Of a DNA stretch of 64,000 nt, positions 5,182-10,616 are shown piece by piece. The notes beneath the pieces are model-generated. The model searched no databases and had not been told where the DNA came from. It saw only the letters and a list, made by a program, of their open reading frames with translations. Each line of letters begins with the position of its first letter. Position 1 is the stretch's first letter. Source of the stretch: an uncultured Verrucomicrobiota bacterium (GTDB lineage: Bacteria > Verrucomicrobiota > Verrucomicrobiia > Limisphaerales > UBA9464); contig CAIWVP010000111.1 in the NCBI GenBank assembly GCA_903916195.1, positions 2,530-66,529 on the forward strand, read 5' to 3'. The position numbers and the translations under genes are program-made.

Positions 5182-5195
5182 CGGGACCGGTGGCT

Positions 5196-5333
5196 GAGGT
5201 AGCGCGGAGTTGAACTCCGCTGTATCGCGGGTTTGCAACCCGCAGGCGCTGCGACGGGTAGGCGGTCGGGACTTGCCGACGCCCTGCCGAGTGCAACTCG
5301 GCGAAACGGCAGGTTTCGAACCTGCGCCACGAG
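5196..5333. repeat. 138-bp nested-palindrome repeat, copy A (four 17-nt hairpins plus terminal inverted GTAGCGC/GCGCCAC)
   Basis: Hairpins are gcggagt-tga-actccgc, gcgggtt-tgc-aacccgc, gccgagt-gca-actcggc and gcaggtt-tcg-aacctgc. It matches the reverse complement of 14641-14778 with 20 mismatches in 138 nt (manual alignment). Confidence 0.8.
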
Positions 5334-5714
5334 CGGCCGCCACATCCGGCCGCACCCTGTTGTGCATGGTTGGACCGTCCATGCGGCGCAACTCCACTTC
5401 TTGCAGCCTCTCCATCCGCCAAGAACATCGCGGAGCGATGTCAGCCATTAGCCGGGAGTCGAGGAGCGGAGCGACGACACCCCCGGATACCGTGGGCCGG
5501 TGCCTGCTGCTTCCAGGTTTGTTTACGGTTTTCGAGGGCGAAGTGTTACCGAATCTGCACAAATAAAGTGAAATTAAGCGGTTGAAAACCTGGAACTATG
5601 GTGTGCCAGTATTGGAATGGTAAAAGAAGAAATAGGATTCGATTAGGTTTTCTTGGGGAAGCACAGCGGATTCGATAAAATTAGACGACCAAAAAACGAG
5701 TATACAACTGTGTT

Positions 5715-8129
5715 ATGAATGAAAAACTGACATTACATATTGCAGAGCGCTACCTCAATGGTGAAAACATAAATCTCGAGTTGTTTGGGCGCGTCGAGTT
5801 ACGTGCGCTCGAGCTTTTGGCGAGTCGAGTCTCGGATTTTTCATTTTTGAAAGAGATTGACGGGCGCCATGCTGAAATTCTTTCAACGGTATGTAATGAA
5901 CTAATTCTGGATGGCTTATCTACTATAGACGATGAATCTGCTCGGATACTGGGAGAAAAGCATCTTGGGAGTCTATCCCTGCGATGTTTGACAGTTTTGT
6001 CAAAACCCGCAGCAAAGAGCCTCTGCCTTCATAAAGGGTTAATCAACGGCATGAAATCTGGGGCATTTGTAACCCAAATGCGGACGAAGCCTGAAATTCA
6101 AGGTAACAAATTCGGTAGTCAACAAAGCCAGCCTGAGGCTTCTCAAAGTGTTGGCAAAATTCGTGCGGAAAACGCTGAAGCCAACGCCGCAGACTCTGCA
6201 TCAGACCCTGTTCCGACTGTGTCTGCCACCAGCTTCCGTGAAGTGGCAAAAGAAAAAAAAGATTCACCAGCCAACACTATTAGATTAATCGTGACTCACC
6301 AGGACGTCATTTTTGAAATATACTCTGCGTACTTAAAACAAAAGACTCCTTGGTGGGATAAGGTCACCACCACAAGCACTTTGCATATCGACAAGGATTG
6401 GCTAGATCGAGGAGGATACGGGGTTTTACAATGCGTTAGGGTTCAAAAACTGATTGAGACACGAGTTTGTGAAACGTGTTGCATCCCGTACAGGAATGAA
6501 GAAGTCCCGGACTCATGCGTACGACTTGATCCGTGGGAAATCGAAGCCTTTCCGGCAGTGGACGCCAAGAAAGGCCCGACGAGCAATAAACTTTCACCCG
6601 TTGACAGCAGGCGAGTACATCCATGTTATGTGTGCGATGCTAGTGGAGAAATCACATGCCGAAGTTGCAATGGACGTTGCGAGGTTACTTGTGGTAATTG
6701 CTCAGGAACAGGCCAAGAACGAAAGACACGTGGAATTCCAGAAATTATTTTATGCGGATCATGCAACGGTTGTGGTTATAAAGATGGTCATGGTAAATGC
6801 TACTCTTGCAATGGCTCAGGGAGAAAGCAACAAACTAGATCCGAAGAATACTTCGTGCCATGTGTGTCATGCCGCAGCACGGGTCTTGTAACATGTTCTA
6901 CGTGTCGGGGAACCGGTAAAGAACAGTGCTACAAATGCGAGGGGCGAGAGAAACTTCTTGAATTTGTTCAATATACACAATCAGTTCAGTCCGTTATTTC
7001 AGAACCTTTGATTGTAGGTTCCGCAACCGCACTCAAACGCCTGCACTGGGGTGCCTTGGAATCTTTTGTTAATTTTGTTAATGTGGCAGATTCTTTTCAG
7101 CAAATCATCAATGATTTGACATCACGTTTTGATGAAGAAGTCTGCCTAAAGAGCGTTGTTTCAATAAACAGATTTTCTGATCCTAACTTTGAAGAATTAA
7201 CTAATGATGAGGAGACCACAACTACATTGGCTCATTTGCATCAGAAGACGACGGCACCCGAGCGGCATGCGACACACGAGTGTAAAGTATTGTCACAAGA
7301 AATGGGTTACTTGTTTCAAGTAACGCAGGGCAAAGAAAAATTGGCAGCTATAGGAACTAAGAACCCAGCGAGAATTCTCACGCTTGGAGGGACTGAGATA
7401 GAAGCAAAACTGGAAAAACAGTCTCGCTTTCTTAGGTTTTTGGTAATGGCTGGCTGTGATAAAATGATAGCAGCAACATCCGCGACTGCTGACGGGCCGA
7501 CACCATGTGGGCCTATAATGAAGTGGTTTAATCCCATTCTGCAGCTATTTAAGCCGCTTTTCGGTATTGTATTCGTGCTCGCGAGCATCGGTCGAAATGA
7601 GGTCGGCGATGCAGTGTTTATCCTAACACTATTAGGATTCTATAACTTCCAAAAATTAGCTGCTATCAAAAAGTGGGGGGTAATATTACCGAATGGATTA
7701 CACATACCTGGGAAGCAAAAGAACAGTAATCCAATCTCTTATTCTAACCGTCGAAGGCACTATGTTTACTTTAAATCTTTTCTTTCCTCTCAAGAAAAGA
7801 ACGCAGTAAACGCCCTTATAGAGATCCTGATTTCCAATCGCCCGGAAGGTCACTGGACCAAAGAGATTCCGAAGGAGAATCACTACTCGCGTTTAACAAA
7901 AATTCCTTTCAGGAACTTCTTTTTTGGAATTGGGGGGGCTCGAAGCATTTTGTATCGGGAATGGGCTCTTGCAGGTCCTTTTTCGAACGCTGAGAAGGCA
8001 AGGCAATGGAGGCCTTGGTCTGCTGTAATGACGGACGATAATCTCGAAAAAGGGTTTAGCAAACTCACCTTTGTGACTAAGAGGCCAGCAGGCGAGCATA
8101 CCTGCACTTATATTCTCACAAGTGTTTAA
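5715..8129 (+). CDS. Orphan 804-aa multidomain protein: leucine-rich-like repeats, eight DnaJ-type CxxC zinc-finger motifs, hydrophobic helical hairpin
   Basis: It is the only long ORF in an AT-rich stretch (35% and 50% GC in the two 60-nt lines I hand-counted). CxxC motifs CYVC, CRSC, CGNC, CGSC, CYSC, CVSC, CSTC and CYKC lie at nt 6624-6944. The N-terminus has about 24-aa repeats (LDGLSTIDDESARILGEKHLGSLSLRCLTVLSKPAAKSL). Hydrophobic segments are FKPLFGIVFVLASIG and AVFILTLLGFYNF. Confidence 0.8.
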   Translation: MNEKLTLHIAERYLNGENINLELFGRVELRALELLASRVSDFSFLKEIDGRHAEILSTVCNELILDGLSTIDDESARILGEKHLGSLSLRCLTVLSKPAAKSLCLHKGLINGMKSGAFVTQMRTKPEIQGNKFGSQQSQPEASQSVGKIRAENAEANAADSASDPVPTVSATSFREVAKEKKDSPANTIRLIVTHQDVIFEIYSAYLKQKTPWWDKVTTTSTLHIDKDWLDRGGYGVLQCVRVQKLIETRVCETCCIPYRNEEVPDSCVRLDPWEIEAFPAVDAKKGPTSNKLSPVDSRRVHPCYVCDASGEITCRSCNGRCEVTCGNCSGTGQERKTRGIPEIILCGSCNGCGYKDGHGKCYSCNGSGRKQQTRSEEYFVPCVSCRSTGLVTCSTCRGTGKEQCYKCEGREKLLEFVQYTQSVQSVISEPLIVGSATALKRLHWGALESFVNFVNVADSFQQIINDLTSRFDEEVCLKSVVSINRFSDPNFEELTNDEETTTTLAHLHQKTTAPERHATHECKVLSQEMGYLFQVTQGKEKLAAIGTKNPARILTLGGTEIEAKLEKQSRFLRFLVMAGCDKMIAATSATADGPTPCGPIMKWFNPILQLFKPLFGIVFVLASIGRNEVGDAVFILTLLGFYNFQKLAAIKKWGVILPNGLHIPGKQKNSNPISYSNRRRHYVYFKSFLSSQEKNAVNALIEILISNRPEGHWTKEIPKENHYSRLTKIPFRNFFFGIGGARSILYREWALAGPFSNAEKARQWRPWSAVMTDDNLEKGFSKLTFVTKRPAGEHTCTYILTSV

Positions 8130-8284
8130 CGAGGTTGTTCCGGGTGGTCCAAGTGAACTGATTGGCGATTTGCCACCGGGTGGTGGCGGTTGTTCGCGAT
8201 TCTGTTTGGCAGACACCCGGTAACACCGTCGTTCATAATTGGACGAGGGTGGTTCACTGCTTCAGCTTTCAAATCACCCGATTG

Positions 8285-8875
8285 ATGGACTGCGACACCA
8301 CAGACCCGGATCTTCTGAAATCGTTGAAGGGCATCGAGAACACGGACGCGTGGGTTCGATTCGAACGCCTTTATCGTCCACCGATTCTCACGCATTGTCG
8401 CGGAGTGGGGTTGACGCTCGATCAGGCGGAGGAGGTGGTCCAGGAGTGTTTCATCCAGTGTTTTCGCTATCTTCCCTCGTTTGAATACTCGGTGGCGGTG
8501 GGACGATTTCGAGCGTGGTTGAATCTCACGGTCAACCAACGGATTGCTGAACACTTCCGAGATTCGGTCCGCTCGGATCGACTAAAAACCGCCTACGCTG
8601 CATTGCTTCGTGATTTAAGCGGGACCTACCCTGGCTCCAATGCAAATCCTTCCATCTTCGAGTACGAGCTGGTTTCGATGGCGTTCCGCAAAACCCAGGC
8701 GGAAGTGGAGCCAAAGGGCTGGCAGGTCTTCGAGGCACACGTGATGCACGGACTCAAATCCAACGAGGTTGCACGGCAGTTTGGAGTGTCCGCTATCCTG
8801 GTTCGGGTGACCACCCATCGTATTCGGAAGATTTTACAACGAAACTGGAAGCTGCTCCAAGAAGGGCCGTTCTGA
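8285..8875 (+). CDS. ECF-type sigma-70 family RNA polymerase sigma factor
   Basis: Region 2-like sequence is FERLYRPPILTHCRGVGLTLDQAEEVVQECFIQCFRYLPSF...FRAWLNLTVNQRIAEHFR. Region 4 HTH is LKSNEVARQFGVSAILVRVTTHRIRKIL. The start was moved to the ATG at 8285, giving about 196 aa. Confidence 0.85.
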   Translation: MDCDTTDPDLLKSLKGIENTDAWVRFERLYRPPILTHCRGVGLTLDQAEEVVQECFIQCFRYLPSFEYSVAVGRFRAWLNLTVNQRIAEHFRDSVRSDRLKTAYAALLRDLSGTYPGSNANPSIFEYELVSMAFRKTQAEVEPKGWQVFEAHVMHGLKSNEVARQFGVSAILVRVTTHRIRKILQRNWKLLQEGPF

Positions 8876-8876
8876 A

Positions 8877-10415
8877 ATGAGCCTGCTCTCCGATTTTCCG
8901 GGCTCTTTGGTCGAGCACGCGGGACACATCGTCAGGGTCCGCAGTTTGTCGAGTCGGCAGAACCGGGAGGTGTATCTGGTTGAAGACTCGCAAGCCCGGA
9001 TGAGGGTCTTCAAGATCCGACGAAACTTGGAGCCTGGAACCATCGCGGCCTTTCTGGATGTTCGGACGCGTATCTCGAAAGGCCCGCCCAACCTGCACTT
9101 GTGCCCGATTTTGGGCTTTGGAAACGATGTTTCGACGGTGTGGGAAGAACTTCAACCCGCAGACGACGCTGAAAATGCGGCTGCCGCCTTCGATGAGTAT
9201 TCCCCGCTGCATCCTCAGCGATGCAATTCCTTGTCAAAGGACCTGTCGTTGGAGTTAGCCGTTGAAGTGGGGTCTGCGGTCTGCGGTGCACTCGTGGAAC
9301 TTGCTGGCTTGGGGCTGACTCACGGCGACGTCAAACGTACGAATGTCCTCCGAGTCAACGGTCGGTGGGTGCTTGGGGATTTCGACACCGTCAGTTCCAG
9401 CTCGGTTGAGAGTCCTCCAACCGCATCCACCGAGGGATACGTACCGCCCGGCGGCGATGACGGTCGCGGACGCGACTGCTACGCCCTCGGCAAGTTGATG
9501 TATGAACTATGGACCGGATGCGATCGGATGGAATATCCAACGATTCCATCCTGGCTGATGAAGTCTCGCTGGAGCCGGGCGGATCGCCTTTTGAACGACA
9601 AGATTTGTCGCCTTTGCTCTCCGTTGGCGACCCAGCGTCTTCGCAGTTTGGAGTCGATCGGCAGAGTCCTGGATGCACTCAAAAACCGAAACAAGGGTGT
9701 CCTGCATCAAGCGGAAAAATTGGTCGGAAGCAGGCGGCCGTGGTGGGTGGTCCCGCTGGCCGTTGCTGGCATGGTGGGGATTACATCCGTTGCTTGGTTG
9801 TATGCCACCGCCACGCGGAAAGAAATGTGGGACGGCCAGCCGGTTGTTTTCTCTCCTTATCGACCCATCAATAGGGTCAACCACGGGTACGGCCGCTGGG
9901 CCGGCAATGGTATCCGTAACGTGTGGATGTTGTTCAACACGCATGCGACGCTTTCCCAACCTCTTCAGCAGGATGAGGTGCTGGAATTCTCATTGAAAAA
10001 GGAGGTTTGGAGGGGGCACATTGGTCTATATCTCACCACAACCCCGTTTTATAAGATACGCGACAAGTGGTTTAGTCACCGTGAGAACTTCGGCGAGATC
10101 GATCACCTGCTGTTTTTCCATGTGGATGGCGATTCGTTGGTGGCACCGACGATCTTTAAGGATGGCAAGGCTGTTGAGTTTCCTTCTTCCAATTGGAGGG
10201 TCGCGTTGACCACCAACACCCTGGCAACCTACACGATCCGACTCAAGGTCATGCCGACTGCGTATGAATGGACCGTATCGGCGGGTGGTGATCCTCTCGC
10301 GGAGGGACACTATCTCAGAGATCCGAACAAACCCGAGTACCTGAACGTGTACGTGTTCGACAACACGGTTTGCTATCTCAGCGACTTGAAGGTGGTCAAG
10401 CAACCCTCTAACTAG
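8877..10415 (+). CDS. Membrane-spanning Hanks-type Ser/Thr protein kinase-like protein with extracytoplasmic beta-rich domain
   Basis: Catalytic loop HGDVKRTNV is at 9321-9344. It also has a DFD in place of DFG (LGDFD), an APE-like GYVPPG and subdomain IX DCYALGKLMYELWTG. I see no glycine-rich loop. One TM helix is WWVVPLAVAGMVGITSVAWLYA, followed by about 190 C-terminal aa. The ATG lies 1 nt after the sigma stop. Confidence 0.8.
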   Translation: MSLLSDFPGSLVEHAGHIVRVRSLSSRQNREVYLVEDSQARMRVFKIRRNLEPGTIAAFLDVRTRISKGPPNLHLCPILGFGNDVSTVWEELQPADDAENAAAAFDEYSPLHPQRCNSLSKDLSLELAVEVGSAVCGALVELAGLGLTHGDVKRTNVLRVNGRWVLGDFDTVSSSSVESPPTASTEGYVPPGGDDGRGRDCYALGKLMYELWTGCDRMEYPTIPSWLMKSRWSRADRLLNDKICRLCSPLATQRLRSLESIGRVLDALKNRNKGVLHQAEKLVGSRRPWWVVPLAVAGMVGITSVAWLYATATRKEMWDGQPVVFSPYRPINRVNHGYGRWAGNGIRNVWMLFNTHATLSQPLQQDEVLEFSLKKEVWRGHIGLYLTTTPFYKIRDKWFSHRENFGEIDHLLFFHVDGDSLVAPTIFKDGKAVEFPSSNWRVALTTNTLATYTIRLKVMPTAYEWTVSAGGDPLAEGHYLRDPNKPEYLNVYVFDNTVCYLSDLKVVKQPSN

Positions 10416-10420
10416 TCAGG

Positions 10421-10451
10421 GTGATGATGGCGGTTTTGAGTCCGTCATCAC
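10421..10451 (+). terminator. Possible stem-loop at the right edge of the low-GC island
   Basis: gtgatgatgg / ccgtcatcac forms a 10-bp stem with 1 mismatch and an 11-nt loop, 6 nt after the kinase stop. No U-tract follows, so it is weak as an intrinsic terminator. Confidence 0.25.
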
Positions 10452-10616
10452 GGCAACGGAATCGGTGGATGGCGGAGACGCGGGATAGGGCACCGGACGG
10501 ATGACAGCGACCTGAGGCCACCCTCGTGCCTGCCTACTGATCCCTACTCGCGAGCGCCGCAAAACGACTCCTGGTGTATCGTCTCCTGGGACGATGGCCG
10601 GACCCGCGGGCCGTGG

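Follow-up and report, generated by a model that had tools for sequence, protein, structure and literature searches.

The 64-kb window (the whole stretch of DNA analysed) contains a complete open reading frame at 5715..8129 on the + strand that encodes a protein of 804 aa (plus stop codon), here termed the zinc-ladder gene. It lies in an island of low GC against the host background (5400..10500) together with two further genes on the same strand. An ECF-type sigma-70 factor gene (8285..8875, +; TIGR02937, E 1.7e-13) is found 156 nt downstream, with the same start offset in public contigs, and is followed directly by a gene for a 512-aa Ser/Thr-kinase-like protein with one hydrophobic helix (8877..10415, +), which gives weak kinase-domain matches and in which HGDVK..N and DFD motifs can be read. 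GC content is 0.40-0.48 in the zinc-ladder gene, 0.50-0.60 in the sigma and kinase genes and 0.67-0.70 in the host background, and the homologous genes in loci L001, L002 and L003 also fall below their flanks. A resolvase sits beside the homologues P0001 and P0003, and tRNA genes lie upstream in L002. The zinc-ladder gene is horizontally acquired, foreign cargo; the sigma factor gene is a neighbour, not a conserved partner, and no sigma gene adjoins P0002, P0003 or P0005. Public assemblies contain an identical 804-aa protein, and the 2.4-kb reading frame is unbroken in several independent assemblies.

The protein comprises, in order, LRR-like repeats, a linker, a pre-domain, the zinc ladder, a middle domain, a hydrophobic hairpin and a C-terminal domain. 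Approximately four repeats of ~24 aa, of the F-box/CC type, occupy aa 1-113 (5715..6053, +). Their LRR-like character, proposed in an earlier sequence-only reading, is borne out by matches to multi-repeat proteins such as P0011 (E 6.5e-24), whose repeat family in turn matches the LRRs of FBXL2 (6o60_C, E 7e-4) and Leptospira LIC10831; searched alone, the segment gives no PDB or Pfam match. The N-termini of P0006 and P0007 are 75% and 64% identical to aa 1-113 and precede unrelated C-termini, and the repeats have no counterpart in P0002-P0005. They are a lineage-specific N-terminal add-on. The expected Q/S/A/E-rich low-complexity linker is indeed present at aa 114-186 (6054..6272, +), as judged from composition; it has a pLDDT of ~25 in the whole-protein model and is missing from P0002-P0005. 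Four of the five close homologues lack both the LRR-like part and the linker, so the earlier description of the array as embedded in an LRR protein has to be given up.

The pre-domain (aa 187-303; 6273..6623, +), conserved in the family and always found ahead of the ladder, carries the motifs WWDK, LIETR, PY and DPW. In a 29-sequence alignment (A3) its R250 never varies and its P258 and W274 hardly do (at least 90%), and the model has a long strand at aa 244-258 (pLDDT >90); fold searches of PDB and BFVD gave no match. The array of eight CxxC motifs, the predicted zinc ladder, follows (aa 304-412; 6624..6950, +), and then the middle domain (aa 413-600; 6951..7514, +). Two hydrophobic helices form a putative membrane hairpin at aa 601-655 (7515..7679, +). 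The hydrophobic pair noted previously thus recurs in hydropathy analysis at aa 604-626 and 633-651 (Kyte-Doolittle 1.9 and 1.5, the second helix being borderline), with a polar loop of 6-7 residues in between and a K/R-rich stretch beyond helix 2, and a low-confidence whole-protein model places the helices at 602-625 and 629-654. The hairpin probably anchors the protein in the membrane, with both termini cytoplasmic. The C-terminal domain (aa 656-804; 7680..8126, +), with motifs LPNG, SYSNRRR and WALAGPFSN..QWRPW, is restricted to P0001-P0004 and has no library match. The whole protein has no match in Pfam, NCBIfam, PADLOC or PHROGs, and no enzyme signature was detected, in keeping with the proposal that it is not an enzyme. 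AF2 modelling of the entire protein on a 6-sequence alignment gave a pLDDT of 33 and was unusable; only the module containing the array was modelled usefully.

The eight CxxC motifs, none overlapping another, begin at aa 304, 315, 326, 347, 362, 383, 394 and 405, and their sequences are exactly those quoted in the sequence-only reading. All 16 of their cysteines are invariant across six sequences at identities down to 24%, as are most knuckle glycines, and the array cysteines are invariant or nearly so in the 29-sequence alignment of remote relatives. There is also a ninth, overlapping CNGC at aa 350-353 and an extra Cys at 322, with 18 Cys within the 107 aa of the array segment, and a CETCC lies upstream at aa 252-256. 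None of 20,000 shuffles of the protein attained eight CxxC motifs, which excludes a chance origin. The CxxCxGxG zinc pattern that had been assigned to the array holds insofar as profile and fold are of the DnaJ-CRD type, but the strict pattern fits only four of the eight motifs (3, 4, 5 and 7), the others being CxxCxxxG, CxxCxGxC or CxxCxGxx. Specifically, the isolated array matches PF00684 (DnaJ_CXXCXGXG) at E 3.3e-5, although its 24.5 bits fall short of the gathering score of 32.7, and its profile matches Ydj1 (1nlt, 5.3e-5) and the E. coli DnaJ CRD (1exk, 4.5e-4) in the PDB. The closest fold matches of the module model are DnaJA2 (7zhs, prob 0.98), BSD2 (6ekb, 8ilm_N) and Ydj1. The absence of a J domain was correctly noted; PF00226 gave no match to the whole protein or to aa 1-133 at E up to 10.

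The motif spacing in the 804-aa protein is palindromic (11,11,21,15,21,11,11). The AF2 model of the module has a pLDDT of 85, exceeding 90 over residues 60-240, and contains the strand pairs 148-160/184-196 and 58-72/227-242. On the basis of the palindromic spacing, the mostly even motif numbers in the family and these long strand pairs, the array is predicted to form an antiparallel ladder of four Cys4 zinc sites, with pairing 1-8, 2-7, 3-6 and 4-5. We infer four zinc sites per ladder in the 804-aa protein and five in most relatives; the four centres suggested at the outset would thus be a reasonable expectation, given the palindromic spacing.

The protein had been regarded as an orphan, a view overturned by five close relatives (97%, 61%, 58%, 39% and 27% identity) and a large family with a common core. 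This core, a ~115-aa pre-domain followed by the CxxC array, occurs in ~90 of the best 150 matches in a library of 1.84 billion proteins, and the counts given here refer to 90 representatives matched by the module HMM. The number of CxxC motifs is even in 79 of the 90 and the spacing palindromic in 77, while hydropathy places hydrophobic helices downstream of the module in 75, mostly 150-250 aa away; the first helix of the 804-aa protein, at aa 604, lies ~190 aa past the ladder. A family signature, T..E.R ... PY.G ... D.W, stands directly before the first CxxC and is present in the 804-aa protein, in which LIETR (R250), P258-Y259 and W274 fall on A3 columns that are invariant or nearly so. Other members carry Pkinase, J-domain, AAA or TPR modules at the N-terminus and TPR/FGE-sulfatase/Sel1 modules at the C-terminus; a Ser/Thr kinase domain is fused ahead of the module in P0031 and P0119, and a J domain (PF00226, E 1.6e-10) in P0051. 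The post-module region is homologous among 57 main-clade representatives and is lacking in the 804-aa protein. Homology between the two post-module regions was rejected, as the middle domain shows no similarity to that of the main clade (hhalign probability 0.3%) and its profile matches only P0001-P0005.

The family spans bacteria and archaea in hundreds of 50%-identity clusters, and is named by no library searched and found in no paper. No Pfam, NCBIfam, PADLOC or PHROGs model covers more of it than the DnaJ-type cysteine-rich segment, and we found no literature description of a bacterial family of such make-up. PADLOC applied to 67 relatives gave matches through fused kinase domains only, and none for the 804-aa protein. 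None of the searches assigned the protein to a family whose function is defined, and homologues conserve the Cys pairs, so neither of the findings that the sequence-only reading named as refuting it was obtained. The close clade is very rare, with 5 relatives in 5.8 billion clusters and none in scans of 185,579 species genomes or of viral contigs; a first metagenome scan found none, and a second found four short loci at ~40% only. The homologue search with the module alignment returned mostly weak matches confined to the zinc array. Similarly, 50,697 phage and 72,556 plasmid records held no homologue beyond weak zinc-array matches, and a phage or plasmid origin is unsupported by those matches, which lie in three ~640-kb uncultured phages and one Halobiforma plasmid.

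Gene neighbourhoods across the family are heterogeneous in a small sample. The remote member in L007 has a type I REase (1.7e-48) and a trypsin-like protease as neighbours, and that in L004 a CRISPR-type CorA (1.4e-50) 24 nt downstream and then a STAND NTPase; nothing defence-like was seen in the neighbourhood of L010. Conserved upstream partner genes in L001 and L002 were considered and rejected, as their translations look non-coding and the L002 region overlaps tRNA-Ile. An invertase-driven shufflon, prompted by the adjacent resolvases, is likewise unsupported, with no convincing inverted repeats in L002 or the window.

To judge how the ladder evolves, we compared L001 and L002, an allele pair whose flanks are 99-100% identical. 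In this one pair, on which the elevated values rest, the Zn array has a pN/pS of 4.84 (nd 37.8, sd 2.2, P 0.003), compared with 0.62 for the pre-domain and 1.83 overall. The changes are multi-nucleotide; they affect the two middle residues (xx) of CxxC and the tip loop and spare every Cys. Because the substitutions fall almost only on exposed knuckle residues, the ladder is suggested to be a recognition surface. Between the 804-aa protein and its 97% homologue P0001, 7 of 107 ladder residues differ, all within the tip (aa 351-376), against 0 of 113 in the N-terminal repeats and 1 of 117 in the pre-domain. In another clade, L011 and L012 show clear purifying selection (pN/pS 0.17 overall and 0.05 in the Zn array), and diversifying selection across the whole family is contradicted by L011, L012 and L013. 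No second copy of any gene part was found in the window, L001 or L002, and, with no template repeat found, the idea that the ladder varies through DGR-type targeted mutagenesis is unsupported. P0186 shows frameshift-like clusters of differences.

Comparison with known systems indicates how far the likeness to DnaJ extends. The ladder resembles the CRD of DnaJ, Ydj1 and DNAJA2 (PF00684) in its CxxCxGxG-type knuckles and in the predicted hairpin that pairs outer and inner motifs. However, the type I Hsp40 CRD has four motifs, whereas there are eight here and ten in most relatives, mostly with an 11-residue period, and the ladder is flanked by a family-specific pre-domain, with hydrophobic helices after it. 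The 804-aa protein also lacks the J domain, G/F region and C-terminal substrate-binding domains of type I Hsp40s; outside aa 304-420 there is no Pfam or PDB-sequence match to the DnaJ_C beta-sandwich. The plant DnaJE proteins (ORANGE, BSD2, LQY1, PSA2 and FIP) likewise have a DnaJ-type CRD without a J domain, and ORANGE, LQY1 and FIP join it with membrane helices, as the 804-aa protein does according to hydropathy. Their CRD serves as a protein-binding or holdase surface, and by analogy the ladder may be one as well. The isolated array matches the BSD2 CRD model PF25436 weakly (E 1.6e-3), and the plant proteins show no sequence similarity to the 804-aa protein outside the knuckles. They are small proteins of the plastid that have two zinc sites and a C-terminal CRD after the helices, whereas the ladder has double that length, precedes the helices, is accompanied by a pre-domain of its own and is encoded on a bacterial mobile island. 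ORANGE, for example, has an N-terminal client-binding region, two TM helices and a C-terminal four-motif CRD, in contrast to the CRD at aa 304-410, which precedes the helices. The Bacillus protein anti-TRAP (RtpA), a DnaJ-CRD-like zinc module, binds and inhibits one specific protein, but it is soluble, has 53 aa and one zinc site, and lacks a membrane part and repeats; the matches are weak (PF15777, E 0.05 with the array; NF058604 in 5 relatives). The combination of foreign island, variable surface and membrane segment also recalls single-chain or two-gene anti-phage systems that join a variable sensor to a transmembrane effector (for example the TM effectors of CBASS, Pycsar and retrons, and CRISPR-associated CorA), although the 804-aa protein has no PADLOC homology and no nucleotide-signalling or NTPase partner in the window.

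Our best explanation, held tentatively and with confidence just short of even, is a cytoplasmic, probably membrane-anchored protein-recognition scaffold whose partner is most likely a component of a genetic conflict, not a housekeeping client. The array would fold back on itself to give a long two-stranded rod, in which motif i and motif n+1-i together make up a Cys4 zinc site, like motifs 1/4 and 2/3 of DnaJ. Exposed knuckle and tip residues may then bind another protein, by analogy with all DnaJ-type CRDs characterised so far (DnaJ/Ydj1, BSD2, ORANGE and anti-TRAP). Judging from family architectures, the hairpin at aa 601-655 would anchor the complex on the inner side of the membrane, and the LRR-like repeats could provide a second binding surface in the slot occupied in relatives by a kinase, J domain, AAA ATPase or TPR. 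The partner, for example a phage or mobile-element protein, would be the weakest step of this proposal; a genetic-conflict partner is suggested by the foreign origin of the gene and by the very rapid evolution of the ladder surface in one allele pair.

The same features bear on a possible, though rather doubtful, alternative: that the protein is a J-domain-independent, membrane-anchored holdase or assembly chaperone, the bacterial counterpart of plant DnaJE (ORANGE, BSD2, LQY1, PSA2). Non-native polypeptides or assembly intermediates at the membrane would be the ligands of its ladder, which might also have thiol-disulfide activity, while the LRR-like repeats select the client. The sole recognisable homology, to the DnaJ and BSD2 CRDs, is consistent with such a role, as are the genuine J domain of P0051, the ordinary purifying selection in other clades and the plant precedents that join TM helices with a CRD. 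However, a J domain occurs in only one of ~90 members, no chaperone genes lie nearby, and the close clade is extremely rare and found on foreign DNA near resolvases, which would be unexpected for a proteostasis factor. A pN/pS of ~4.8 at exposed ladder residues, in one pair, also differs from the conserved surfaces of generalist chaperones. The redox or unfolded-protein sensing suggested in the sequence-only reading would be a further possibility, but the foreign island, the resolvases, the defence genes near relatives and the fast evolution of exposed ladder residues in one allele pair speak at least as much for recognition of a specific partner in genetic conflict.

It is improbable, in our view, that the protein regulates the neighbouring ECF sigma factor and Ser/Thr kinase from the membrane, whether anti-sigma-like, as a kinase substrate or as a scaffold, its zinc ladder keeping a signalling protein bound there. 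Zinc-binding membrane proteins are common among anti-sigma factors, and the zinc-binding type (ZAS) has an N-terminal anti-sigma domain with an HxxxCxxC motif, yet no zf-HC2 or anti-sigma Pfam match was found here, and the gene lies upstream of the sigma gene, whereas anti-sigma genes usually come after theirs. The close linkage (156 nt, same strand, with the kinase gene next), a gene with an identical start offset in the contig of the 97% homologue, the shared low-GC island and the kinase domains fused before the module in P0031 and P0119 have to be set against P0002, P0003 and P0005, which have no sigma or kinase neighbour. In addition, the GC of the ladder gene is unlike that of the sigma and kinase genes, suggesting separate histories, and for ECF sigma factors paired with kinases phosphorylation, not an anti-sigma factor, is the likely means of control. 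Finally, a decaying or functionless passenger, in which the array is a repetitive low-complexity relic and the raised pN/pS reflects relaxed constraint, is very unlikely. The 2.4-kb frame is intact in several independent assemblies, and homologues as distant as 24% identity keep all 16 Cys and most of the knuckle Gly, although the overall pN/pS of 1.83 between L001 and L002, the frameshift-like clusters in P0186 and the lack of library annotation (Pfam, NCBIfam, PADLOC, PHROGs) are what a passenger would lead one to expect. Uniform relaxation is discounted because the pattern is position-specific (0.62 in the pre-domain against 4.84 in the ladder, with all Cys kept).

As known from chaperones and from a few small proteins of plants and Bacillus, DnaJ-type zinc fingers are modules of two sites. 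In the undescribed family considered here, this knuckle is repeated to give a predicted four- to six-site rod, which is the constant core. If the ladder is indeed a recognition surface, prokaryotes would have a structural means of specific protein binding that is new, and the recognition reading would offer a handle on 'hypothetical' membrane proteins in defence islands. A more far-reaching version, which we consider unlikely, is that the family is an unrecognised bacterial and archaeal class of intracellular recognition proteins and the 804-aa protein a mobile, single-gene, membrane-anchored anti-invader sensor-effector in which an LRR-like domain is joined to a zinc rod. In that case, four to six zinc knuckles, forming a rigid rod, would display hypervariable residues as its binding surface and would take the part played by LRR or TPR sensor domains in other immune proteins. 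A membrane holdase, if that is what the protein is, would instead be the bacterial counterpart of the plant ORANGE/LQY1 class. The J domain of P0051 suits the chaperone reading rather than that of conflict-related recognition.

Translation of the 804-codon ORF at 5715–8129 (+ strand) gives a product, the window protein, with eight non-overlapping CxxC motifs that start at aa 304, 315, 326, 347, 362, 383, 394, and 405 (nt 6624–6950, + strand), all identical to the sequences listed in the sequence-only reading of this DNA. The array contains 18 Cys within 107 residues, an overlapping CNGC occurs at aa 350, an additional Cys at 322, and CETCC at aa 252; eight CxxC motifs were not reached in any of 20,000 shuffled versions of the protein. 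The CxxCxGxG pattern attributed to the motifs is strictly present in four of the eight, and the other four deviate. The whole protein matched no model in Pfam, NCBIfam, PADLOC, or PHROGs, and Pfam detected no J domain, consistent with its reported absence. Searched alone, the array segment (aa 304–412) matched PF00684 (DnaJ_CXXCXGXG) at E = 3.3e-5 and 24.5 bits, below the gathering score of 32.7, with weaker Pfam matches to the BSD2 CRD, GRXCR1/2, and anti-TRAP, and a profile search of PDB sequences recovered Ydj1 (5.3e-5) and the DnaJ CRD (4.5e-4). We conclude with high confidence that the array is conserved and of the DnaJ-CRD type.

Only five relatives were found among 5.8 billion clusters: P0001 (804 aa, 97% identity), P0002, P0003, and P0004 (~620 aa each; 61%, 58%, and 39%), and P0005 (27%). 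Loss of the Cys pairs in homologues had been named as grounds for rejecting the initial interpretation; this ground falls away, because the alignment of these proteins with the window protein keeps all 16 motif cysteines invariant. Most knuckle glycines are likewise invariant, and WWDK, LIETR, PY, DPW, and LPNG motifs are also conserved. The protein had further been called an orphan, which it is not, since an exhaustive phmmer run against 1.84 billion representatives yielded 615 matches at E ≤ 1e-3, in two unrelated sets: ~90 of the best 150 cover aa ~240–430, comprising the array and the pre-domain directly before it (together, the module), and the remainder of the best 150 cover the N-terminal repeats. 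It can be assigned with high confidence to a large unnamed family. The zinc knuckle itself is an already known element; the ladder of 8–12 motifs, accompanied by a pre-domain and a membrane segment of its own and present in hundreds of clusters, goes under no library name, and we found no description of it in the literature.

The motif spacing of the window protein is 11, 11, 21, 15, 21, 11, 11, and palindromic spacing recurs in 77 of 90 relatives. Motif number is even in 79 of these 90, with ten motifs in 48 proteins, eight in 20, twelve in seven, and six in four, and additional 11-residue motifs appear in both arms at once (rows 26 and 29 of A3, an alignment of 29 remote relatives). An AF2 model of aa 187–432, built on a 29-sequence alignment, reached a pLDDT of 85 (>90 at model residues 60–240), with long strands around the tip (148–160/184–196) and at the base (58–72/227–242) and short knuckle strands between. 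Fold searches with the module model returned only DnaJA2, BSD2, DNAJA3, Ydj1, and viral DnaJ-like zinc fingers, and no matches to the pre-domain. We infer with moderate confidence that the array would form an antiparallel rod, motif i pairing with motif n+1–i, as in DnaJ; this pairing would give four predicted Cys4 zinc sites in the window protein, also at moderate confidence.

Most relatives carry the module at or close to their N-terminus, and hydrophobic helices follow it in 75 of 90, mostly 150–250 aa downstream. The post-module region is homologous among 57 representatives; the window clade is without it and carries middle and C-terminal domains of its own. Pfam domains in the core of the relatives are limited to DnaJ-CRD and BSD2-CRD, plus occasional accessory domains either before the module (Pkinase in P0031 and P0119, AAA in P0106, a J domain in P0051, TPR/MORN in P0024, and zinc ribbons) or after the helices (TPR, FGE-sulfatase, Sel1, PEGA, and Lcl_C). 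The kinase, J, and AAA fusions ahead of the module place it in the cytoplasm, at moderate confidence. The C-terminal pair of hydrophobic helices proposed earlier was recovered by hydropathy at aa 604–626 (KD 1.9) and, as a borderline case, at aa 633–651 (KD 1.5); a short polar loop separates the two stretches, both of which are helices in a low-confidence whole-protein model, and a K/R-rich stretch (KKWG...GKQK...NRRR) follows them in the sequence. Given a cytoplasmic N-terminus, the positive-inside rule would place both termini in the cytoplasm, and we have moderate confidence that the protein is membrane-anchored by this predicted hairpin.

The N-terminal accessory slot of the window protein holds about four ~24-aa repeats. 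P0002–P0005 begin at window residue ~187, so the LRR-like region and linker are an add-on specific to the window/P0001 lineage. P0006 and P0007 begin with counterparts of the N-terminal ~130 aa (75% and 64% identity, respectively) and are otherwise unrelated membrane proteins; the LRR-like head is thus a portable module in the window lineage. One of these two proteins carries GYF_2, TM helices, and a C-terminal CxxC pair, the other TM helices only. The LRR-like description stands transitively, in that members of the repeat family such as P0011 match LRRs of FBXL2 (E = 7e-4) and Leptospira LIC10831, but the window repeat segment alone matched nothing in PDB or Pfam. The overall domain map is held with high confidence.

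The window gene has a GC content of 0.40–0.47 vs 0.68 for the genome and lies in a low-GC island (~5400–10500); its foreign origin is assigned high confidence. The island also contains an ECF sigma factor gene (8285–8875) and, directly after it, a gene (8877–10415) whose 512-aa product is Ser/Thr-kinase-like and has one hydrophobic helix, both at an intermediate GC of 0.50–0.60 that suggests older or separate acquisition. The window gene–sigma–kinase order is repeated in two public contigs; next to the 97% homologue P0001 there is instead a resolvase, 283 nt upstream. P0003 neighbors a resolvase too, on its downstream side, and two tRNA genes precede it. At loci L001, L002, and L003, the family gene is again below its flanks in GC. 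Exactly at the junction of host DNA and island sits a 166-nt GC-rich multi-hairpin element (5185–5350; MFE –87.5 and –83 kcal/mol on the + and – strands, respectively, z ~ –3.5 on both), with no ARAGORN tRNA call and no Rfam family at threshold; candidate identities are an sRNA, a remnant of an integration site, and a REP-like element. Two sub-threshold Rfam matches on the – strand, to Acido-Lenti-1 RNA (5426–5486; 22.3 bits vs a gathering score of 37, E = 0.0088) and YrlA (5260–5352; 20.3 bits vs 69), fall in the 530-nt gap upstream of the window gene, at the island edge, and are probably chance. A 14-nt inverted repeat (8748–8761 and 10432–10445, 93% complementary) brackets the kinase-like gene, and, being short, may well be chance.

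Evolutionary rate was evaluated by Nei–Gojobori counts between L001 and L002, the loci of P0002 and P0003, whose flanking DNA is 99–100% identical (non-coding flanks L001 210–509 and L002 ~800–1100, plus regions downstream of both genes) and whose proteins are 87% identical. Three patches of the coding region, covering the Zn array, the TM hairpin, and the C-terminal end, fall to 80–87% identity. The fast-evolution signal, which rests mainly on this one pair, consists of a pN/pS of 1.83 overall (P = 0.012) and 4.84 in the Zn array (nd 37.8, sd 2.2, P = 0.003), with 0.62 in the pre-domain. The codon alignment contains 2- and 3-nucleotide changes confined to the xx of CxxC (motifs 2, 3, 5, and 6) and the tip loop, every Cys is kept, and the unchanged codons between are nearly without synonymous change (sd 2.2 for the whole array). 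Since pS and pN are both high in the TM patch (0.136 and 0.128), that patch looks like a recombined segment more than selection. Between the window protein and P0001, 7 of 107 ladder positions differ, all at the tip (aa 351–376); the N-terminal repeats are without differences (0 of 113 positions), and the pre-domain has one (1 of 117). A control clade (L011/L012/L013) is under purifying selection (Zn-array pN/pS 0.05 and 0.51), and the fast evolution is therefore clade-specific. As sources of the ladder variation, a DGR and an invertible segment were considered; no template repeat turned up in the window, L001, or L002, and no invertible segment in the window or L002. Separately, P0186 (541 aa, from the window protein's cluster) differs from the window protein in runs at aa 516–528, 586–592, and 602–605, a pattern expected of frameshifts or errors in assembly and not of point substitution.

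We favor, with low to moderate confidence, a reading in which the rod is a specific protein-recognition surface with a conflict-related biological role. The protein might instead be an ORANGE/LQY1-type membrane holdase that works independently of a J domain, a possible but doubtful alternative to which P0051, with its fused J domain, and the purifying selection in the other clade both point. Regulation of the adjoining sigma/kinase pair is less probable still: adjacency and the kinase fusions in relatives argue for it, but the neighborhood is not conserved. That the gene is a decaying passenger is very improbable, being contradicted by position-specific conservation.

The neighborhoods of remote members form a small and heterogeneous sample. 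In L004 (5240–10221), from a Candidatus Fervidibacteria MAG, the gene for a CRISPR-type CorA-like membrane protein (PADLOC 1.4e-50) starts 24 nt after that of P0156, and a NACHT/STAND NTPase comes next, possibly making a three-gene unit. A trypsin-like protease domain forms the C-terminal part of an ~800-aa protein encoded ~50 nt upstream of P0061 in three contigs that may come from one strain (L007, L008, and L009; 4448–9679 in L007), and a type I restriction enzyme (1.7e-48) adjoins this neighborhood in L007. L006 has a ParE toxin neighbor, the P0051 contig has AAA, PDDEXK_4, and DUF2779 genes, and the L010 neighborhood held nothing suggestive. Phage and plasmid collections contained no relatives beyond weak matches to the zinc array only (27–32%), in unannotated stretches of three ~640-kb uncultured phage genomes (LR745206.1, LR756502.1, and LR756504.1) and of a Halobiforma lacisalsi plasmid (NZ_CP019286.1).
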